64,000 nucleotides of DNA from a virus. Its lineage: Duplodnaviria; Caudoviricetes. Below are positions 6,394-19,058 of this stretch, piece after piece. Position 1 is the stretch's first letter; each line of letters begins with the position of its first letter. The translations under genes and the position numbers were made by a program. The notes below the pieces were generated by a model. The model ran no database searches. It saw only the letters and a program-made list of their open reading frames with translations, and was not told the DNA's origin. The stretch spans positions 23,317 through 87,316 of IMG/VR virus record IMGVR_UViG_3300020047_004811, one strand, 5' to 3'.

Positions 6394-6575
6394 AATACCA
6401 CGCAACACCTAACTCATTCTATATTACAATCGACAAGATTCGATATAGTACTAACTTGTATATGAAATGCAATATATCGTATTACTATAAATGTAACAAT
6501 ATGTTGTTCCACAAAGAGAGAAGCGTAAAGATATATAAAGAAAAGGCTAGACATTGGGAGAACTGGAATGAGTAA
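6390..6575 (+). CDS. hypothetical protein
   Basis: Packed ORF overlapping both neighbours. Confidence 0.5.
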   Translation: MKYHATPNSFYITIDKIRYSTNLYMKCNISYYYKCNNMLFHKERSVKIYKEKARHWENWNE

Positions 6576-11296: not shown

Positions 11297-13246
11297 ATGA
11301 AACAGGGGGATACATTGTACGTCAACGTTCGTCGAGGGCTTAATTCTAAGCCAATGCTGGTAAATATCAAAGAAGACATTAATAAGTTTATTACCAACCG
11401 AGATCAAGATTGGTATGTAAGTTTGTATAAATATACTGACGAACATCTACAAACACTAGAAGAAACTGGAACTCTAGCTGGGATTAAAAATACTACAACA
11501 AACACACTATACTTCGACTTCGATTCCAAGGCTGATCTAGCCATTGCACAGAAAGATGCTATTGAAGTAGCAAATAGGCTTATTACTCGCGGACTAGATG
11601 AAGATAATATCGGATGCTATTTTACTGGCGGAAAGGGTTTCAGCGTAGAGGTAGAGATCAATGATTACATTACTCCAGATAAGTTTAAAGCTATTACTGC
11701 TGATATTGCGGGTGACCTCGGCACTTTTGATACTGTCGTCAATGATCCTAATCGTATTGTCCGGCTGGCTAATACTAAGCATCAAAACTCTGGACTCTAC
11801 AAAATCCCGCTCACACCAGAAGAACTAGTGTCGCTTAAAATAGACGAGATCAAGCTGCTCGCCAAGAATCCTAGACAGAATAGAATGCTAAAGGTTGCGA
11901 CATTGCCTAAGAATATGAAAGATATTGAAGTCCCAAAAGTTAAAACAGTAGAGCAAATGGCGAAGGACCTAACCTTCGATACATCTACTATTGATATGAA
12001 AGCCCGCCCAAAAGGAATTGATGAGGTTAGATGGCTTCTGATTAATGGATTCTTCAGAATTGGAGAAGGGGAACGCCACTATGCCATGCTATGTCTAGCA
12101 GCGACTTATAAAAATCAGGGATATCCTAAAGAACATTGCGATGCTCTACTCAATGCAGTAGCTTTAACTCAAGCAAATCGAACTGGAGACGACATATTTC
12201 CAGATGATAAGATTGATCTAATCACAAAGCAAGTTTATGGACCGGGATGGCAGGGCGGTCAATTTACGACTCGCGACCCTAATAACTGGCTAGCAAAATA
12301 TGCTAAGAAGATGGGGATCAATGTAAAAGAAGACGAGGGTCCTGCAACCCTTGATGGTATTAGCGCGGGATTCACCCACTATATCATGAATATTGAGAAG
12401 AATACTGTAAAGACTGGAATTGACGAGCTTGACAAAGCTATGCCTATTACAGTAGGATCAAACATTGGAGTTGTAGCTGCAGCCGGAGCTGGTAAAACAG
12501 CAATGGCGCTAAAAATGTTGAGATATAACTCAGAACAAGGAATTCCTACGGTATTTGCTTCATTGGATATGCACCGTAATAGGCTTTTTGAGAAAGTTGT
12601 GTACAATGTGACGGGTCTTAGCCGAGAAGACGTATACGCCCGATTTAAAGCTGGTAAAGGCAAGGAACTTACAGACCTAGTGAAGAAACATTACGGGAAT
12701 GTGTGGTTCTATGATCGATCTAGCGCGACCGTCGAGGATATTCGTAACTATGTAGTAGATGTAGAGGCTAGAACTGGACAAAAGATTAAGATGGTCATGT
12801 TTGACTACTTCGAGCGGATTAGTTCTGACGTTTCAGACGACACGGCAAGCTCAAAAAAGGTAGCCGGACAGATTCAGGACATGATTAACGATCTAGATGT
12901 AGCTGCAGTCACGTTAGTTCAGCCAAACAAGTTCTCCCTTGGTGGAGGACCAGACACAGAGATCAAATCATATACTGCAATCAAGGGAAGTTCGTTCCTT
13001 TACCAGAGTTTTAGGGGGATTGTTAGTCTTAGTCGCCCATTTTATACGCCAGACACGGCAGAACTTGACAAATATATGGTAATCAACGTACTGAAAAACG
13101 ATTTGGGTGCTCAAGCTAGGTTTGAAATGGGTTGGCATGGTAAAACTGGTGAGATTTATACCCTCGAAGACCATGAAAGAGCAGAGCTTAAAGAACTTAT
13201 GAAGCTTAAGAATGCAACGAAAGAAAAATCTGACGGGTGGGAATGA
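11297..13246 (+). CDS. AEP primase / PriCT / DnaB-like (SF4) helicase fusion
   Basis: LYFDFD and TGGKGF primase motifs, GERHYAMLCLA PriCT-like segment, Walker A AAGAGKT, FDYFE, LVQPNK. Confidence 0.9.
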   Translation: MKQGDTLYVNVRRGLNSKPMLVNIKEDINKFITNRDQDWYVSLYKYTDEHLQTLEETGTLAGIKNTTTNTLYFDFDSKADLAIAQKDAIEVANRLITRGLDEDNIGCYFTGGKGFSVEVEINDYITPDKFKAITADIAGDLGTFDTVVNDPNRIVRLANTKHQNSGLYKIPLTPEELVSLKIDEIKLLAKNPRQNRMLKVATLPKNMKDIEVPKVKTVEQMAKDLTFDTSTIDMKARPKGIDEVRWLLINGFFRIGEGERHYAMLCLAATYKNQGYPKEHCDALLNAVALTQANRTGDDIFPDDKIDLITKQVYGPGWQGGQFTTRDPNNWLAKYAKKMGINVKEDEGPATLDGISAGFTHYIMNIEKNTVKTGIDELDKAMPITVGSNIGVVAAAGAGKTAMALKMLRYNSEQGIPTVFASLDMHRNRLFEKVVYNVTGLSREDVYARFKAGKGKELTDLVKKHYGNVWFYDRSSATVEDIRNYVVDVEARTGQKIKMVMFDYFERISSDVSDDTASSKKVAGQIQDMINDLDVAAVTLVQPNKFSLGGGPDTEIKSYTAIKGSSFLYQSFRGIVSLSRPFYTPDTAELDKYMVINVLKNDLGAQARFEMGWHGKTGEIYTLEDHERAELKELMKLKNATKEKSDGWE

Positions 13247-14403: not shown

Positions 14404-14630
14404 TAGCCCCCATGGGTGTCTCTGACTACCATGAAGGACAAATTCCACATCAATTCTAGAACAAGGTGTGGCGGAGGTAGGGACGAAAATATTCCTTTTA
14501 GTGATTGGTGGTCCTTTAAATTAAGCCGACACTCCAATGGCGTCACATGCCTAAACGCTCTGAACCCCGGCTCGACTGGGTAGTAGGAGTATAGATTTGA
14601 AGTTGTGAGGTGGCGGCTCGCTTTATTTAA
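14404..14630 (+). ncRNA. candidate structured ncRNA
   Basis: GC-enriched gap with no convincing ORF and at least six complementary stem pairs. Confidence 0.45.
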
Positions 14631-14639
14631 GGAGAGTAT

Positions 14640-14822
14640 ATGAAAAAACCAACACTTGAAGAAGCTATAATAATTATTCAAAAATCACCTGAAGGTTTTG
14701 CTAAAGAGTTCTTTAGAATACATCCTCAAACATTTATCGACCTTATTCCAGACAACCTACAACTAAATAAAAAGCCACTCAGCAAATCCCAGAAACACAA
14801 AAAGCGCAAACAAAAGCCTTGA
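14640..14822 (+). CDS. hypothetical protein
   Basis: AAGGAG SD; basic C-terminus. Confidence 0.55.
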   Translation: MKKPTLEEAIIIIQKSPEGFAKEFFRIHPQTFIDLIPDNLQLNKKPLSKSQKHKKRKQKP

Positions 14823-14848
14823 CAATCCCACCCTCGTACCAGTATAGT
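14819..14848 (+). promoter_or_regulatory. sigma70-type early promoter
   Basis: TTGACA (14819-24), 18 nt spacer, TATAGT (14843-48). Confidence 0.7.
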
Positions 14849-14855
14849 ATTTATT

Positions 14856-14974
14856 GAGCCGGTCTATGGTAGATAGCGCCCGGAGCTAATACTCCCAAGG
14901 CCTAGTTGGTTCGATTCCGACAAGGAACATGGTCTAGACTGTGGAGAGGGTTTCAAGTCCCTCCCGGCTTCCCT
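14856..14974 (+). ncRNA. tRNA-like RNA with two T-loop hairpins
   Basis: 7 bp acceptor-like stem GAGCCGG/CCGGCTT stacked on GAGGG-TTTCAAGT-CCCTC; internal GTTGG-TTCGATT-CCGAC; starts 7 nt after a -10 box. Confidence 0.6.
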
Positions 14975-14988
14975 AATAAAAGGAAAAC

Positions 14989-15135
14989 ATGAAGAAAACT
15001 AAAGGACCAAACCTAATCAAAGGTCCGAAACCAAACTTAAGGAAAAAACTTAAGGGAAAGATACAAGTGTCAGTTCGCAAGACTTGGTTCTCAGACGCTA
15101 TGGATGAACTGGACAAATTGGACAAGAAACAGTAG
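14989..15135 (+). CDS. small basic protein (48 aa, absent from ORF track)
   Basis: AAGGA SD; MKKTKGPNLIKGPKPNL... Confidence 0.5.
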   Translation: MKKTKGPNLIKGPKPNLRKKLKGKIQVSVRKTWFSDAMDELDKLDKKQ

Positions 15136-15148
15136 TTGGTCATAATAT

Positions 15149-15178
15149 TTAACAACTATAGTATATAAGGAGTTGTTA
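15149..15178 (+). promoter_or_regulatory. TTAACAACT motif inside an RBS-sequestering hairpin
   Basis: TAACAACT (15150-57) pairs with AGTTGTTA (15171-78), overlapping the AAGGAG SD and the A of ATG. Confidence 0.7.
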
Positions 15179-15798
15179 TGACCGAGATTGACATTACCCA
15201 AGAACCTAGATCAAAAAACTTTAAGGATAGAAGTGGAGAAATAGTATCTAAATTAAAGATAATTAAACTCCATAAAATTGTAAAAGTGCTGGAGTATAAA
15301 AAACCGGACGGGTCTCCCAGAACTAAAGTTTATTGGGAATGTCAATGTGATTGTGGTAATATTTGTATTAAGGGGAATGACGTTCTAAATAACCGAAAAC
15401 GGAATTTCAGTTGCGGGTGTTTTAGAAAACAAAGAATTACTCAAACAAAATTAAAGCCTGAAAATCACAGAGAAAATATACTAGTCCAAACTATGGCTAG
15501 ATATAGAATTGAAGCAAAAAATAGAAACTATTCTTTTAATTTATCTAAAGATGAATTTATTGATGTAATAAACAAACCATGTTTTTATTGTGCAACAGAA
15601 AACTCACAATTTGTAACACACCCGATCACGAAAGAAAAACATTGGTTTAGTGGAATAGATCGCATTGACAACCGCGCTGGATATGAGTATAATAATATAG
15701 TCCCGTGTTGTAAGAAATGTAACACTAAGAAAAATAGTATAGACCCAGAAATGGTAGTCAAACTTTATAATTTGCTGAAAGAGAAAGGTATCATTTAA
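15178..15798 (+). CDS. HNH homing endonuclease
   Basis: WECQCDCGN N-terminal motif; CFYC...GIDRIDN...NIVPCCKKCNTKK. Confidence 0.85.
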   Translation: MTEIDITQEPRSKNFKDRSGEIVSKLKIIKLHKIVKVLEYKKPDGSPRTKVYWECQCDCGNICIKGNDVLNNRKRNFSCGCFRKQRITQTKLKPENHRENILVQTMARYRIEAKNRNYSFNLSKDEFIDVINKPCFYCATENSQFVTHPITKEKHWFSGIDRIDNRAGYEYNNIVPCCKKCNTKKNSIDPEMVVKLYNLLKEKGII

Positions 15799-17693
15799 TG
15801 TCCAAATTGATTTACGGGAAAAATGATTTAGAAAGAATCGTTTCGATTGAAATATCAGACGATACCGCTACCCTGTTTAGGGAACTAGAAGATGGCACTT
15901 TAGATATCAAAAAAGTTCCTAATAAATTTTGGATTCTTGGTTCTAGACAATTCGATAAAAGTTGGATTAGACTAGAAGGAGAACAACATTTTAAATGGGG
16001 TAAGCAATTTTCTAAATATTCCGATTGGGCAGAAACCAAAAAATCATTACCATTTCAAGAAATTTACACAGTTAGTAATCAGGTAGAAGCGTTTCAAATT
16101 AAAGACGGGTATACTTTATTTAAAGGAATGAAACACAACGAACCTAGTATTCTTTCTTTCGATATCGAGACAACCGGATTGGACCATAATGCAGATTCAA
16201 AGGTTATTCTGATTTCTAATACTTTTAGAAAATTAGGAAAAATAACAAGAAAGTTATTTTGCTATAGTGATTATTCAAATTGTGCGAAAATGATCGACGA
16301 CTGGGCTAGTTGGGTAAGAATGATGGACCCCAGCATTATGTGTTTTCATAATGGTTACGCTTACGATTTACCATATCTTAACTACTGTCACGCTAAATAT
16401 AGCGATGAGCCTATTATTCTCGGAAGATGTGACAAACCTATCTACTTCAGTAAATATGAATCTAAATATCGAGTTGATGGTAGCCGGGACCTTCATTATT
16501 TTAAATGTCAAATCTACGGACGAGAACTAGTCGATACAATGTTCCTATCCTATAAATATGATGCTGTAGAGAAGAAATACGAGTCATACGGTCTGAAAAA
16601 GATTATTGCTCAGGAAGGACTTGAGAAAGCCGGACGGACATTCTACGATGCATCGCTAATCAGAACAAACTATACAGACCCAGTTGAACTGGAAAAGATT
16701 AAACAATATGCGGAAGAAGATGGCGACGATGCTCTGGCTTTGTATGATCTTATGGTTGCTCCTACCTTTTATCTTACCCAATCAATTCCTAAACCATTCC
16801 AGCTTGTTGTTGAGTCTGCCACCGGCTCTCAGATTAACTCTCTTCTTGTCCGTGCTTATTTACAAGATAAACACAGCGTCGCAAAAGCCGACAATCTAGA
16901 TGAAGAAAAGGTTGAGGGGGGAATTTCCTTTGCAGTCCCGGGAATCTATAATAACGTATTCAAGATTGATATTAAGTCTTGTTACCCATCTCAAATTCTA
17001 AGGTTCAAACTTTATGAAGAACGTAAAGACCCAAACGCATATTACTACAAACTCGTCGAGCACTTCACCCTCCAACGATTTGAGTACAAAAAACAAATGC
17101 TCGCAACCGGCGACAACTATTGGAAAAATCTGGACGCTATGGCTAAAATCTTTATTAATAGTAGCTACGGTGTGGCTAATACCAGCGGGCTTAACTATAA
17201 CTCAGCCGCTATCGCCAGGAAAATTACCATTGAGTCTCGCGCTATTATTGACATGTCTCTTAGGTGGGCTTCTGGTAGTGGGTATAGGACTTGGGCTACT
17301 AAATTTTATGATGCTATTGGAGAAAAAGAAGAAGACCGAGTCTACTTGTCGTTGCCGGAATCGCCGCTGGCAATAAAATATCACCACGACTTCATAATCG
17401 CACCGTCAGATACAGATTCTATTTCGTTCTGTAAACCAGACATGGCTCCATTCAGCCCAGAAGAGATCAAAACTCTACTAGGAGAGATTAATGAGCAATC
17501 CCCTGACAAAGTCCTGTGGGAAGACGATGGCGTCTATAAAACGATTATAGCCCTTAAAGCTAAGAACTATGTTCTACTTAAAAACAATGGAAAATTAACA
17601 ACTAAAGGTAGTGCATTAAAGGGTGGAGTTAAGTGTCCAGCTCTTAAAAAATTCATGAAAGAGGTTGTTGATGTCTTGCTCGAAACTGAATAG
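15798..17693 (+). CDS. family B DNA polymerase, N-terminal part (exonuclease, palm, fingers)
   Basis: FDIETTG, HNGYAYD exonuclease motifs; DIKSCYPS (A), KIFINSSYG (B), SDTDS (C), KAKNY; ends early in the thumb. Confidence 0.95.
   Translation: MSKLIYGKNDLERIVSIEISDDTATLFRELEDGTLDIKKVPNKFWILGSRQFDKSWIRLEGEQHFKWGKQFSKYSDWAETKKSLPFQEIYTVSNQVEAFQIKDGYTLFKGMKHNEPSILSFDIETTGLDHNADSKVILISNTFRKLGKITRKLFCYSDYSNCAKMIDDWASWVRMMDPSIMCFHNGYAYDLPYLNYCHAKYSDEPIILGRCDKPIYFSKYESKYRVDGSRDLHYFKCQIYGRELVDTMFLSYKYDAVEKKYESYGLKKIIAQEGLEKAGRTFYDASLIRTNYTDPVELEKIKQYAEEDGDDALALYDLMVAPTFYLTQSIPKPFQLVVESATGSQINSLLVRAYLQDKHSVAKADNLDEEKVEGGISFAVPGIYNNVFKIDIKSCYPSQILRFKLYEERKDPNAYYYKLVEHFTLQRFEYKKQMLATGDNYWKNLDAMAKIFINSSYGVANTSGLNYNSAAIARKITIESRAIIDMSLRWASGSGYRTWATKFYDAIGEKEEDRVYLSLPESPLAIKYHHDFIIAPSDTDSISFCKPDMAPFSPEEIKTLLGEINEQSPDKVLWEDDGVYKTIIALKAKNYVLLKNNGKLTTKGSALKGGVKCPALKKFMKEVVDVLLETE
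17595..17603 (+). promoter_or_regulatory. TTAACAACT motif inside polB, upstream of GIY-YIG gene
   Basis: Exact 9-mer ending 67 nt before ATG 17671. Confidence 0.55.
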
Positions 17694-18450
17694 TTTTATA
17701 GTATATAAGGTTACTTCTCCAAGTGGTGGAATTTACATAGGAATTACATCTCAAGGATTAGAAAAAAGAAAACAAGATCATTTTTATGAGGCAAAAACTC
17801 ATAAAACAAACAGAAAATTCCATAATGCTTTAAATAAGTATAAAGATAAATTAATCTGGGAAATAATCAAAACTCAATTAAGTAAAAAATTAGCTCAAAA
17901 ATATGAAGAGTACTATATAAAAAAATATAACACTCAAAAATTGGGCTATAATATTACATCAGGAGGAGAATGTAATTTAGGTAGAGTAATGACTGAAGAA
18001 CAAAAATCAGTTTTATCTAGAATATCTAAAAAACAATTTAAAGATCGCCCAGAACTAAGAAAAAATATGTCTGATATTCAAAAGAAAAGACTTTCTGATC
18101 CGAATGAGAATAAAAAGCATAGACAATTGATGAAAAAGACTCATGGAACCAAGGAAGCTCGACTTAGAAATTCTAGAATTCAAGGAGGAAAACCATTCAA
18201 TGTCTATAATTTTATAACTAAAGAATTTGTCAAAACATATGAAATTATAACTGACGCTAATAATGAACTAGGTCTTCCAAATGGAAAAGTTTCATGGTGT
18301 CTATCAGGAAAGAGAAATCATTGTAAAACTTATATATTCAAATATATTGACGACCCAACAGTTGACGGTATAAAATACAATCATATCTGGGATAAAAAAA
18401 TAAAGAGGATGCCAAATGGGACTAACAGAAAAAAAGAAAGAAAAGCTTAA
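17671..18450 (+). CDS. GIY-YIG homing endonuclease (NUMOD3/NUMOD1-like tail)
   Basis: IVY..TSPSGGIYIGIT, E..YIKKYNT..LGYNITSGG; AT-rich; overlaps both polB halves; GAGG SD before ATG 17671. Confidence 0.9.
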   Translation: MSCSKLNSFIVYKVTSPSGGIYIGITSQGLEKRKQDHFYEAKTHKTNRKFHNALNKYKDKLIWEIIKTQLSKKLAQKYEEYYIKKYNTQKLGYNITSGGECNLGRVMTEEQKSVLSRISKKQFKDRPELRKNMSDIQKKRLSDPNENKKHRQLMKKTHGTKEARLRNSRIQGGKPFNVYNFITKEFVKTYEIITDANNELGLPNGKVSWCLSGKRNHCKTYIFKYIDDPTVDGIKYNHIWDKKIKRMPNGTNRKKERKA

Positions 18451-18823
18451 AGAATTATATGAGACATATGTTAATGAAATTATGACTTTGCAAGATATCA
18501 AACCATGGTGTACAAGAAAAACATTATCTAGTACTATGCAGGAATCGGATCGAACTAATGAAACTAAAGTGATGACAGCACTAGAGGGTTCTGACTATAG
18601 AGAAGGTGACAGATTTTACACTTACTACAAAGAAGACGACTCTATAGGATTAGCTGAAAACTTCAATCACGACCACAATAGAATGAGATTACTAAAGAAT
18701 CTATACGACAGCAGTGCTATTTTTTCAACTGTAATCCCATCTAAAGAACTATTCCCAAACTATAGTTTAAAAAAGAACTATAAGATTCTTCTTGACAAAT
18801 ACTCCCCATCTCCTGTAAGTTAA
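18416..18823 (+). CDS. family B DNA polymerase, C-terminal (thumb) part
   Basis: Continues the polB pattern (YETYVNEI..IKPWCTRKT..TNETKV..GDRFYTYY..LLKNLY); own AGAGG SD. Confidence 0.7.
   Translation: MGLTEKKKEKLKELYETYVNEIMTLQDIKPWCTRKTLSSTMQESDRTNETKVMTALEGSDYREGDRFYTYYKEDDSIGLAENFNHDHNRMRLLKNLYDSSAIFSTVIPSKELFPNYSLKKNYKILLDKYSPSPVS
18792..18821 (+). promoter_or_regulatory. sigma70-type early promoter
   Basis: TTGACA (18792-97), 18 nt spacer, TAAGTT (18816-21). Confidence 0.55.
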
Positions 18824-18827
18824 TCTT

Positions 18828-18891
18828 AGCCGGGGGGTAAGTCGGAAATCCCAGCAAGTGCACTGTATGGCTTTCGGTCTCCCGGCTCCCT
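18828..18891 (+). ncRNA. candidate small structured RNA (motif copy B)
   Basis: Closing stem AGCCGGGGG/CTCCCGGCT; shares GTAAGTCGG-N7-AGCAAGT..ACTGTA..CTCCCGG with 1037-1080. Confidence 0.55.
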
Positions 18892-18902
18892 ATAAGGATT
18901 AT

Positions 18903-19058
18903 ATGCAAGAAAAACTATATTACACGATCTGCGGCTGTCTTCTAAGTTTAGCAAACATAGCTCTAATCGAGACTAGGTTTAATATAGTAGGCTTGGGATT
19001 TGGTATTCTCGGGGCTATTCTTATTATCAAAGCCATATTAATCCGACCTAAAAAATAA
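18903..19058 (+). CDS. small two-TM membrane protein
   Basis: AAGGA SD before ATG 18903; two hydrophobic helices. Confidence 0.55.
   Translation: MQEKLYYTICGCLLSLANIALIETRFNIVGLGFGILGAILIIKAILIRPKK

Follow-up and report, generated by a model that had tools for sequence, protein, structure and literature searches.

A tRNA-like RNA element of 119 nt lies at positions 14856-14974 of a 64,000-nt stretch of DNA from an uncultured phage of the Caudoviricetes. The stretch, called the window throughout, comprises bases 23317-87316 of the 87,316-bp virus record IMGVR_UViG_3300020047_004811, which is rated complete. Judged by its sequence, the element forms the 5' leader of a message transcribed early and coding for a basic protein of 48 amino acids; it is assembled from tRNA parts, and none of its arms can decode. 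The comparisons reported here establish its anatomy, its origin from tRNA, its position in the leader, the hairpin that relatives carry in its place and the partial conservation of its structure. The reading favoured here, with a confidence that falls a little short of even, is that of a leader domain derived from tRNA, unable to decode and acting in cis, either as a 5'-end structure or as a processing signal. The element would thus probably be a tRNA relic put to a new use, and not an established decoy RNA of a new kind.

The element is closed by an acceptor-like helix of seven pairs, formed by a 5' strand at 14856-14862, the first base of which is the predicted start of transcription, and its complement at 14964-14970 (all features of the element and its gene are on the + strand). 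The first pair of this helix is G-U and its pair 3-70 is G-C; from its first to its last base it spans 115 nt and encloses five hairpins. The first of these is small and D-arm-like (14863-14873; 4 bp, with GG in a 3-nt loop), and the second (14882-14895) has a 4-bp stem and a 6-nt loop (14886-91) and occupies the place of the anticodon arm in one possible cloverleaf. There follows an inner T-arm hairpin (14901-14925), in which a 5-bp stem (14905-09/14917-21) carries a canonical 7-nt T-loop (14910-16); this core, 14905-21, can be extended to 14901-25 by three more base pairs beyond an A-A mismatch. A lineage-specific, "amber-like" hairpin (14928-14943) of five pairs, two of them G-U, has again a 6-nt loop (14933-38). 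The outer T-arm (14946-14963; 5-bp stem 14946-50/14959-63) stacks on the closing helix, and its loop follows the T-loop consensus with one additional T, giving 8 nt against the canonical 7, with the closing G-C pair present. The tail and ribosome-binding region (14971-14988) consists of a discriminator-like C, CCT, an A-rich spacer and a Shine-Dalgarno sequence, and the element therefore ends in C-CCT-A, not NCCA. The minimum-free-energy fold (-40.8 kcal/mol) is identical to the model of the original prediction, made from the sequence without database searches; every helix that it described is present, and the CCCTA that it reported in place of NCCA is confirmed.

As a single sequence the element appears statistically unremarkable. 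Its fold has a z-score of -1.06, with 32 of 200 shuffled sequences equally or more stable, and a descriptor of a T-arm followed by a 7-bp closing helix matched the genome once, against a mean of 0.5 in 40 dinucleotide shuffles. These values are compatible with chance complementarity in a GC-rich intergenic spacer, for which 0.5 descriptor matches per shuffled genome would be expected. Such an origin is nevertheless extremely improbable and is refuted by comparison: the related genome L075 has a homologue with shared architecture, and about 30 nt of the element are exact or near-exact copies of real tRNAs, which points to more than chance.

These 30 or so nucleotides, identical or nearly so to real tRNA genes, are the closing helix and the outer T-arm. 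The pattern formed by the outer T-arm and the 3' closing strand matches real tRNA-Lys(UUU) and tRNA-Cys genes on viral contigs, and those genes also have the 5' acceptor strand of the element. The combination of closing helix and T-arm is found in the tRNAs of 96 prokaryote genomes from many phyla; a search of prokaryote genomes for the long form (closing helix, 55-75 nt, T-arm) gave no match. The inner T-arm together with the next four bases is a 21-mer that recurs unchanged towards the 3' end of phage tRNA-Thr genes, and the first 74 nt of the element resemble a tRNA shape that occupies the corresponding leader of L112 (alignment z = 3.3). With canonical tRNA (RF00005; the tRNA-Lys UUU and tRNA-Cys types; class II) the element thus shares a 7-bp acceptor stacked on a 5-bp T-arm, the T-loop consensus and the same letters, as well as a GG-containing D-like segment and a place just upstream of an open reading frame (ORF), where real tRNAs of related phages also stand. 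It differs in its length of 115-119 nt and its five hairpins, where a tRNA has 70-95 nt and a four-arm cloverleaf, in lacking a valid anticodon loop and CCA, in its inner second T-arm and 8-nt outer T-loop, and in giving no covariance-model or ARAGORN match. The acceptor and T-arm helices and the G-C pair are in place, with deviations in the size of the outer loop (8 nt) and in the first pair (G-U); in L075 this part is fully regular. Furthermore, since the element begins at the predicted transcription start, it would have no 5' leader for RNase P.

ARAGORN, applied to the window and to the whole genome in default, intron (-i) and mitochondrial modes, gave no usable tRNA or tmRNA. It found no functional tRNA gene anywhere in the phage genome, and with -i no intron-type insertion. 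Rfam gave no match over the whole window at gathering score, and its tRNA model (RF00005) gave none within 14700-15100 at E-values up to 10; the score cut-off of that covariance model, 29 bits, is not reached by the element, whereas the L112 leader exceeds it (37.5 bits). When matches were instead taken by E-value, the element, a non-coding island upstream of it and two other leaders of the phage returned only noise (Plastid-ycf2, NPPA-AS1, sau-13, sRNA-Xcc1 and a 13-nt tmRNA T-arm). Both of these checks had been proposed in the original prediction, and its view of an RNA that is tRNA-like yet neither tRNA nor tmRNA is borne out by them. At relaxed thresholds ARAGORN does report two overlapping weak tRNA remnants, amid hundreds of false calls.

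A working tRNA was also considered, whether as an amber suppressor (loop 14933-38), as a class II tRNA with an insertion or as a 6-nt-loop reader of two-base codons. Deletion in silico of 28 nt (element positions 21-48) leads ARAGORN to call a class II, tRNA-Ser-like shape, and L075 behaves similarly; in this model the inner T-arm becomes the anticodon arm (CGA) and hairpin 14928-43 the long variable arm. SerRS, LeuRS and AlaRS do not need the anticodon, and loops of 6 nt are found repeatedly (window, L075, L110 and L116). A decoding role is nonetheless very improbable. The intact element receives no ARAGORN call and no Rfam tRNA match at E = 10, and ARAGORN -i detected no intron-type insertion in it. 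U33 and a purine at position 37 do not occur together in any of its 7-nt loops, and the remaining candidate loops are 6 nt long; the "anticodon" loop of the deletion model is a T-loop sequence, with a pyrimidine at 37. The amber suppressor, to which the original prediction had pointed speculatively because the last loop reads like an amber anticodon, is rejected: the loop has only 6 nt, its hairpin is not conserved and is missing in L075, and TAG is an ordinary stop, terminating 15 of the 79 long ORFs of the phage, the frames of which are intact under the standard code.

The position of the element is that of a leader. A strong sigma-70-type early promoter that agrees with 11 of 12 consensus positions precedes it (-35 box 14819-14824, 18-nt spacer, -10 box 14843-14848), and its sequence is almost unchanged in L075, L112 and L109. 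In the window, L075, L112 and L114 the -10 box is separated by 7 nt from the first paired base, which in the window is G14856; this is the expected transcription start, and the start 7 nt past a -10 box that the original prediction had noticed is thereby upheld. The Shine-Dalgarno sequence AAGGA (14980-84) and the ATG lie 10-18 nt downstream of the closing helix, and no terminator was found between the element and the downstream ORF. The assignment as leader follows from these three points, namely the promoter 7 nt upstream, the lack of a terminator and the proximity of the Shine-Dalgarno sequence and start codon. The same layout of tail and Shine-Dalgarno sequence occurs in L075, L110, L112, L109 and L111. 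The gene itself (14989-15135) codes for the lysine-rich, basic 48-residue protein, of which the C-terminal half is conserved. Its family comprises 13 protein clusters and, by tblastn, is located between the helicase and polB genes in L006-L008, L010, L070-L079 and L109-L112; no family in Pfam or PHROG matches the protein. The unit conserved among relatives consists of promoter, leader slot, Shine-Dalgarno sequence and small ORF.

The contents of the leader slot were compared by means of the DNA upstream of the small gene in the cassettes of eleven relatives. The promoter and the Shine-Dalgarno region are constant across these cassettes, and the stretch between them is variable. In L070, L071, L072, L078, L109, L111 and L010 the slot holds a short hairpin of 6-7 pairs. 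In L110 it holds the closing helix of the window and a hairpin with the 6-nt loop of L075, with no T-arm, and in L112 the tRNA shape of 37.5 bits, in which a 6-bp stem with a tetraloop stands instead of the anticodon loop. The window and L075 have the double T-loop form. What remains constant is a helix reaching from the 5' terminus of the transcript to a point about 10 nt upstream of the ribosome-binding site; the tRNA-derived content fills this slot in a lineage-specific manner. The L112 leader (530-601) is a clean anticodon-less tRNA shape preceding a homologous small ORF; it has an additional G-C pair at -1/73, as in tRNA-His, and likewise starts 7 nt past the -10 box.

The nearest counterpart of the element is the 85-nt homologue in L075 (polB 80% identical), which lies downstream of a near-identical promoter (alignment z = 7.3). 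Its closing helix is the same as that of the window and perfectly complementary, its outer T-arm has a canonical 7-nt loop and its minimum-free-energy fold is a four-way cloverleaf. The inner T-loop hairpin is also present, with a loop identical to that of the window and a stem that is altered yet paired through compensatory changes. Hairpins 14863-73 and 14928-43 are absent from L075, the latter also from L110 and L112; the D-like region shares only the string GGTAG, and at the place of 14882-95 there is a different hairpin, also with a 6-nt loop. In L110 the 5' strand of the closing helix is identical to that of the window and the 3' strand is its perfect complement. Pairing is complete (100%, n = 3) in the inner T-arm, where two pairs have changed on both sides, and equally (100%, n = 3) in the 6-nt-loop hairpin of the window, L075 and L110, where all four pairs have done so; these counts, from two to three homologues per helix aligned by position, which favours pairing, are indicative only.

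Beyond L075 the double T-loop form is rare. The element is not present in five closer relatives (L070, L071, L072, L076 and L078; polB 79-84% identical), and a BLAST comparison of the cassette with 50 related viral records returned only noise and no element. In all, the form occurs in 2 of about 12 cassettes examined and in 0 of the 50 further relatives, and a search of metagenome contigs for the promoter-plus-start pattern gave four chance matches within unrelated coding sequence. The locus of the window taken alone is weakly conserved. The second, internal T-loop described in the original prediction is accordingly kept in one relative, with an unchanged loop and a compensated stem, and is confined to two genomes. 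That prediction was to fall if the RNA proved to be an ordinary or decayed tRNA with no double T-loop conserved in relatives; derivation from a tRNA, with decay, is indeed what was found, and the double T-loop is kept in L075.

The restricted distribution bears on a further explanation, that of a tRNA pseudogene in decay, or of two fused tRNA fragments, in which selection would maintain nothing more than any leader sequence provides. According to this explanation the tRNA genes of the clade precede ORFs, and the copy in the window has lost decoding and is being eroded by indels. Neither ARAGORN nor Rfam recognises it, relaxed ARAGORN resolves it into two overlapping remnants, the damage is widespread (8-nt T-loop, G1-U72, tiny D-like hairpin, 6-nt loops) and the indels relative to L075 are large. 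Moreover, the element is missing from most close relatives, its fold energy is no better than that of shuffled sequences and the whole genome has no working tRNA. Simple decay would not, however, be expected to leave the closing helix unchanged across three lineages with very different interiors, nor to keep two inner hairpins paired by compensatory changes. The slot, in addition, always has some 5'-terminal helix, which argues that at least the end pairing is under selection. On balance a mere pseudogene is rather unlikely.

According to the favoured reading, a leader domain acting in cis, the conserved promoter, the leader, the Shine-Dalgarno sequence and the gene for the 48-residue basic protein would form an early transcript unit. 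Transcription would begin at G14856, and a tRNA acceptor stem and T-arm would close the RNA from its first base, with a second T-arm hairpin, a 6-nt-loop hairpin and two lineage-specific hairpins in the interior. This composite leader would substitute for the short 5'-terminal hairpin of the relatives, and its compact, stable fold would hide the 5' end a few bases upstream of the ribosome-binding site. The message may be stabilised by the burial of its 5' end, punctuated by it, or both. Since enzymes that process tRNA ends are known to need no more of their substrate than an acceptor/T-arm minihelix, cleavage at the 3' side of the leader may also occur and would free a stable RNA of tRNA-like shape.

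Parallels for both functions exist. Stem-loops at the 5' end stabilise bacterial and phage mRNAs, as does the ompA 5' hairpin, and the position of the element fits such a stabiliser: a helix begins at or near the 5' end and closes a short distance upstream of the Shine-Dalgarno sequence, as it also does in the slot of most relatives. The element is, however, far bigger than required for this purpose, is made of tRNA and has conserved T-loops. Processing signals of tRNA-like shape within longer transcripts are known from E. coli thrU-tufB, from mitochondrial tRNA punctuation and from mascRNA at the 3' end of MALAT1. The element shares with them a tRNA-shaped module in a transcript, with the acceptor/T-arm as the key to the processing enzymes, and weak, sub-threshold matches to the mascRNA model fall exactly on the acceptor/T-arm minihelix of L075 and of L113. 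It differs in lying at the extreme 5' end (+1) and in having an interior that is not tRNA-shaped, and its cleavage is putative.

The organisation of the locus recalls the PeSL (promoter-early stem-loop) cassettes of T4-type phages (PMC2839356, PMC4122927). Both have a conserved unit of early sigma-70 promoter, stem-loop and Shine-Dalgarno sequence flanking small variable ORFs in a hyperplastic region, and in both the contents of the cassettes are shuffled among close relatives. A terminator-like stem with a T-run lies directly 5' of the -35 box in L075, L109, L112, L078 and L008; the PeSL stem-loop, according to the legend of figure 3 in PMC4122927, is likewise upstream of the promoter. What sets the present cassettes apart is that their variable structured RNA is part of the transcript, downstream of the promoter, and that the phage clade is unrelated (polB no more than 27% identical to that of a cultured phage).

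Other non-decoding RNAs that combine a T-arm with an acceptor-like helix are the YrlA Y RNAs and the tRNA-like domain of tmRNA. A bacterial Y RNA was considered and dropped, as the element has no Rfam match and no Ro/TROVE gene was found in the phage genome. Unlike tmRNA, the element has no tag reading frame, its pair 3-70 is G-C and not G-U, and it has no ARAGORN or Rfam tmRNA match. In the interdigitated double T-loop of T-box stem I, RNase P and the L1 stalk, pentanucleotide T-loops dock head-to-tail and form a flat surface for the tRNA elbow. The two T-loop hairpins of the element (14905-21 and 14946-63), both present in L075, would be the candidates for such docking. A limited literature search, which is not proof of absence, found no paper describing a tRNA-derived leader with a double T-loop. 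Integration at a tRNA gene was also considered; 3' tRNA halves of the attP kind occur in L081, L084 and L088, and an attP site was dropped for the present element, since it has both acceptor strands and the phage appears to be lytic.

The tRNA shape at a promoter is not confined to this cassette. A search of 38 related records with the tRNA model RF00005 gave 20 matches, of which five are aberrant. These are L101 1494-1570 (- strand; 38 bits, with an odd anticodon arm, ending 15 nt short of the start codon of a lysine-rich ORF), L114 151-219 (- strand; 31 bits, with a perfect -35 box and a start 7 nt past the same -10 context as in the window), L116 155-226 (- strand; a 6-nt anticodon loop), L120 153-232 (47 bits, with an expanded anticodon arm) and L122 153-212 (23 bits, with no anticodon arm). 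All five terminate 10-31 nt upstream of a start codon, and real tRNA-His and tRNA-Asn genes of related phages terminate 8-19 nt upstream of one; the real tRNA-Cys of L119 has no Shine-Dalgarno sequence or ATG so near. The clade thus habitually has tRNA genes straight before ORFs, and in a good share of these decoding has been lost and the tRNA frame kept. The first acceptor base lies exactly 7 nt past the -10 box in the window, L075, L112 and L114, four leaders that have three different acceptor sequences, so that the transcript would begin at tRNA position 1 and RNase P would be unneeded. The element is best described as a tRNA-derived RNA, and a tRNA shape at +1 of an early promoter appears to be a recurring theme of the clade.

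The original prediction proposed a tRNA mimic or decoy, a reading that is partly supported here. In this alternative the element would act in trans: once freed from the leader, the non-decoding mimic would occupy host factors that bind tRNA, in the manner of a decoy or sponge. Its targets would be defence toxins that recognise the acceptor end or elbow, or enzymes that modify or process tRNA, and its two T-loops would be the recognition surface. The T-loop sequence that stays invariant on a co-varying stem speaks for such an RNA, as does the start exactly at acceptor position 1 in the four leaders. In L112, moreover, the acceptor, D and T arms are intact and the anticodon loop alone has been replaced, which looks selected and not like random decay, and several other tRNA shapes of the clade have spoiled anticodon loops. 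The content of the slot is patchy and changes fast, and patchy, rapidly changing content is typical of conflict loci. On the other side, the RNA has no terminator or 3' end of its own, the slot holds only a short hairpin in most relatives and the double T-loop form is confined to two genomes. In the window the outer T-loop has a surplus base and the first acceptor pair is G-U, and the phage has no tRNA-repair, CCA-adding or Ro genes that would suggest a conflict over tRNA. A tRNA-repair context in particular was dropped, genes for a CCA-adding enzyme, Rnl1 or RtcB not having been found in the phage genome. A mimic acting in trans is on balance unlikely. In its broadest form the idea would be that the clade makes a family of non-decoding, tRNA-shaped RNAs, transcribed from strong early promoters exactly from acceptor position 1, with anticodon loops that are closed, shortened or expanded and, in the window and L075, with an added second T-loop arm. 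Once released, they would act in trans and sequester host factors that bind tRNA, such as tRNA-processing enzymes or defence toxins that recognise the acceptor end or elbow, and the double T-loop would be a new architecture of tRNA mimics. This wider proposal is unlikely too.

Several points weigh against the favoured cis-acting leader domain as well. A plain hairpin suffices in most relatives, and a generic cis role leaves the conservation of the T-loops, the compensated stems and the near-perfect cloverleaf of L112 unexplained. The fold, with its z-score of -1.06, is no more stable than that of many shuffled sequences, and the small number of homologues limits the weight of the pairing counts. 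The two halves of the proposal may also conflict: a cut by RNase Z leaves a 5'-monophosphate on the message, which is normally destabilising.

Two other leaders of the window have features in common with the element. The promoter-proximal leader at 18828-18892 has a near-identical closing helix and the same CCCTA tail around a different fold, and directly precedes a Shine-Dalgarno sequence and an ATG at 18905; its sole Rfam match is a weak, sub-threshold one to sRNA-Xcc1 (15 bits). The leader at 960-1100 contains a T-arm remnant (985-997) with a loop identical to the inner T-loop of the element, shares short blocks with RNA 18837-18885 and has a 9-nt string in common with the 3' end of the element. 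Outside the window, at G000:C1 ~6458-6553 of the same genome (L113 259-354), there is a sub-threshold match to the type II hammerhead ribozyme (17 bits, E = 1.2). The full catalytic core is present there (CUGAUGAG and CGAAAC boxes and three helices), and stem III has a 42-nt insert bearing a T-arm-like hairpin. This RNA is placed after a -10 box, about 12 nt before a Shine-Dalgarno sequence and an ATG, and is possibly a self-cleaving leader. A self-cleaving ribozyme in the leader of the 48-residue protein was dropped, as no core motifs and no Rfam match were found.

Upstream of the cassette lie a gene for a DnaB-like helicase (11297-13246) and a non-coding, GC-rich island of about 225 nt (14404-14630). 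The island is 76-92% identical across L070-L079, better conserved than the adjoining HNH gene (73% identical), and its 3' end has a terminator-like hairpin (14605-21) with a T-run, which in relatives is found just 5' of the cassette promoter. An Rfam search of the island gave only noise and no fitting family, and it probably represents an undescribed small RNA of the phage. Downstream, an HNH endonuclease gene (HNH/EndoVII-like; 15178-15798) is situated between the cassette and polB. L070, L072 and L074 have a copy of it (73% DNA identity) and other relatives are without it, a distribution that would fit a mobile gene within a hyperplastic region. The gene for the family B DNA polymerase, polB (15798-18823), is interrupted by a GIY-YIG endonuclease gene, which separates ORFs of 631 and 135 amino acids. 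In relatives the polymerase is mostly one intact ORF of 760-772 amino acids, and it is also split in a few (P0011, P0020).

The phage belongs to a group without close cultured members. Megablast and blastn found no match to its sequence among cultured phages, and in tblastn its polB reached no more than 27% identity with a cultured phage. Hundreds of metagenomic relatives have contigs of 85-95 kb. Searches for related loci gave no match, either with polB alone or with the small ORF against viral and metagenome contigs.

The tRNA shapes that start 7 nt past a -10 box recur in this uncultured clade of 85-95 kb phages, and constitute a set that is easily cloned. If the element acted in trans, non-decoding phage look-alikes of tRNA would bear on the conflict with bacterial defences that target tRNA. 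If it acts in cis, as favoured here, it would provide a clear example from nature of a phage that has turned a dead tRNA gene into a structural cap or processing signal of a message, and would illustrate how widely the RNA modules in one and the same leader slot can differ among close relatives.

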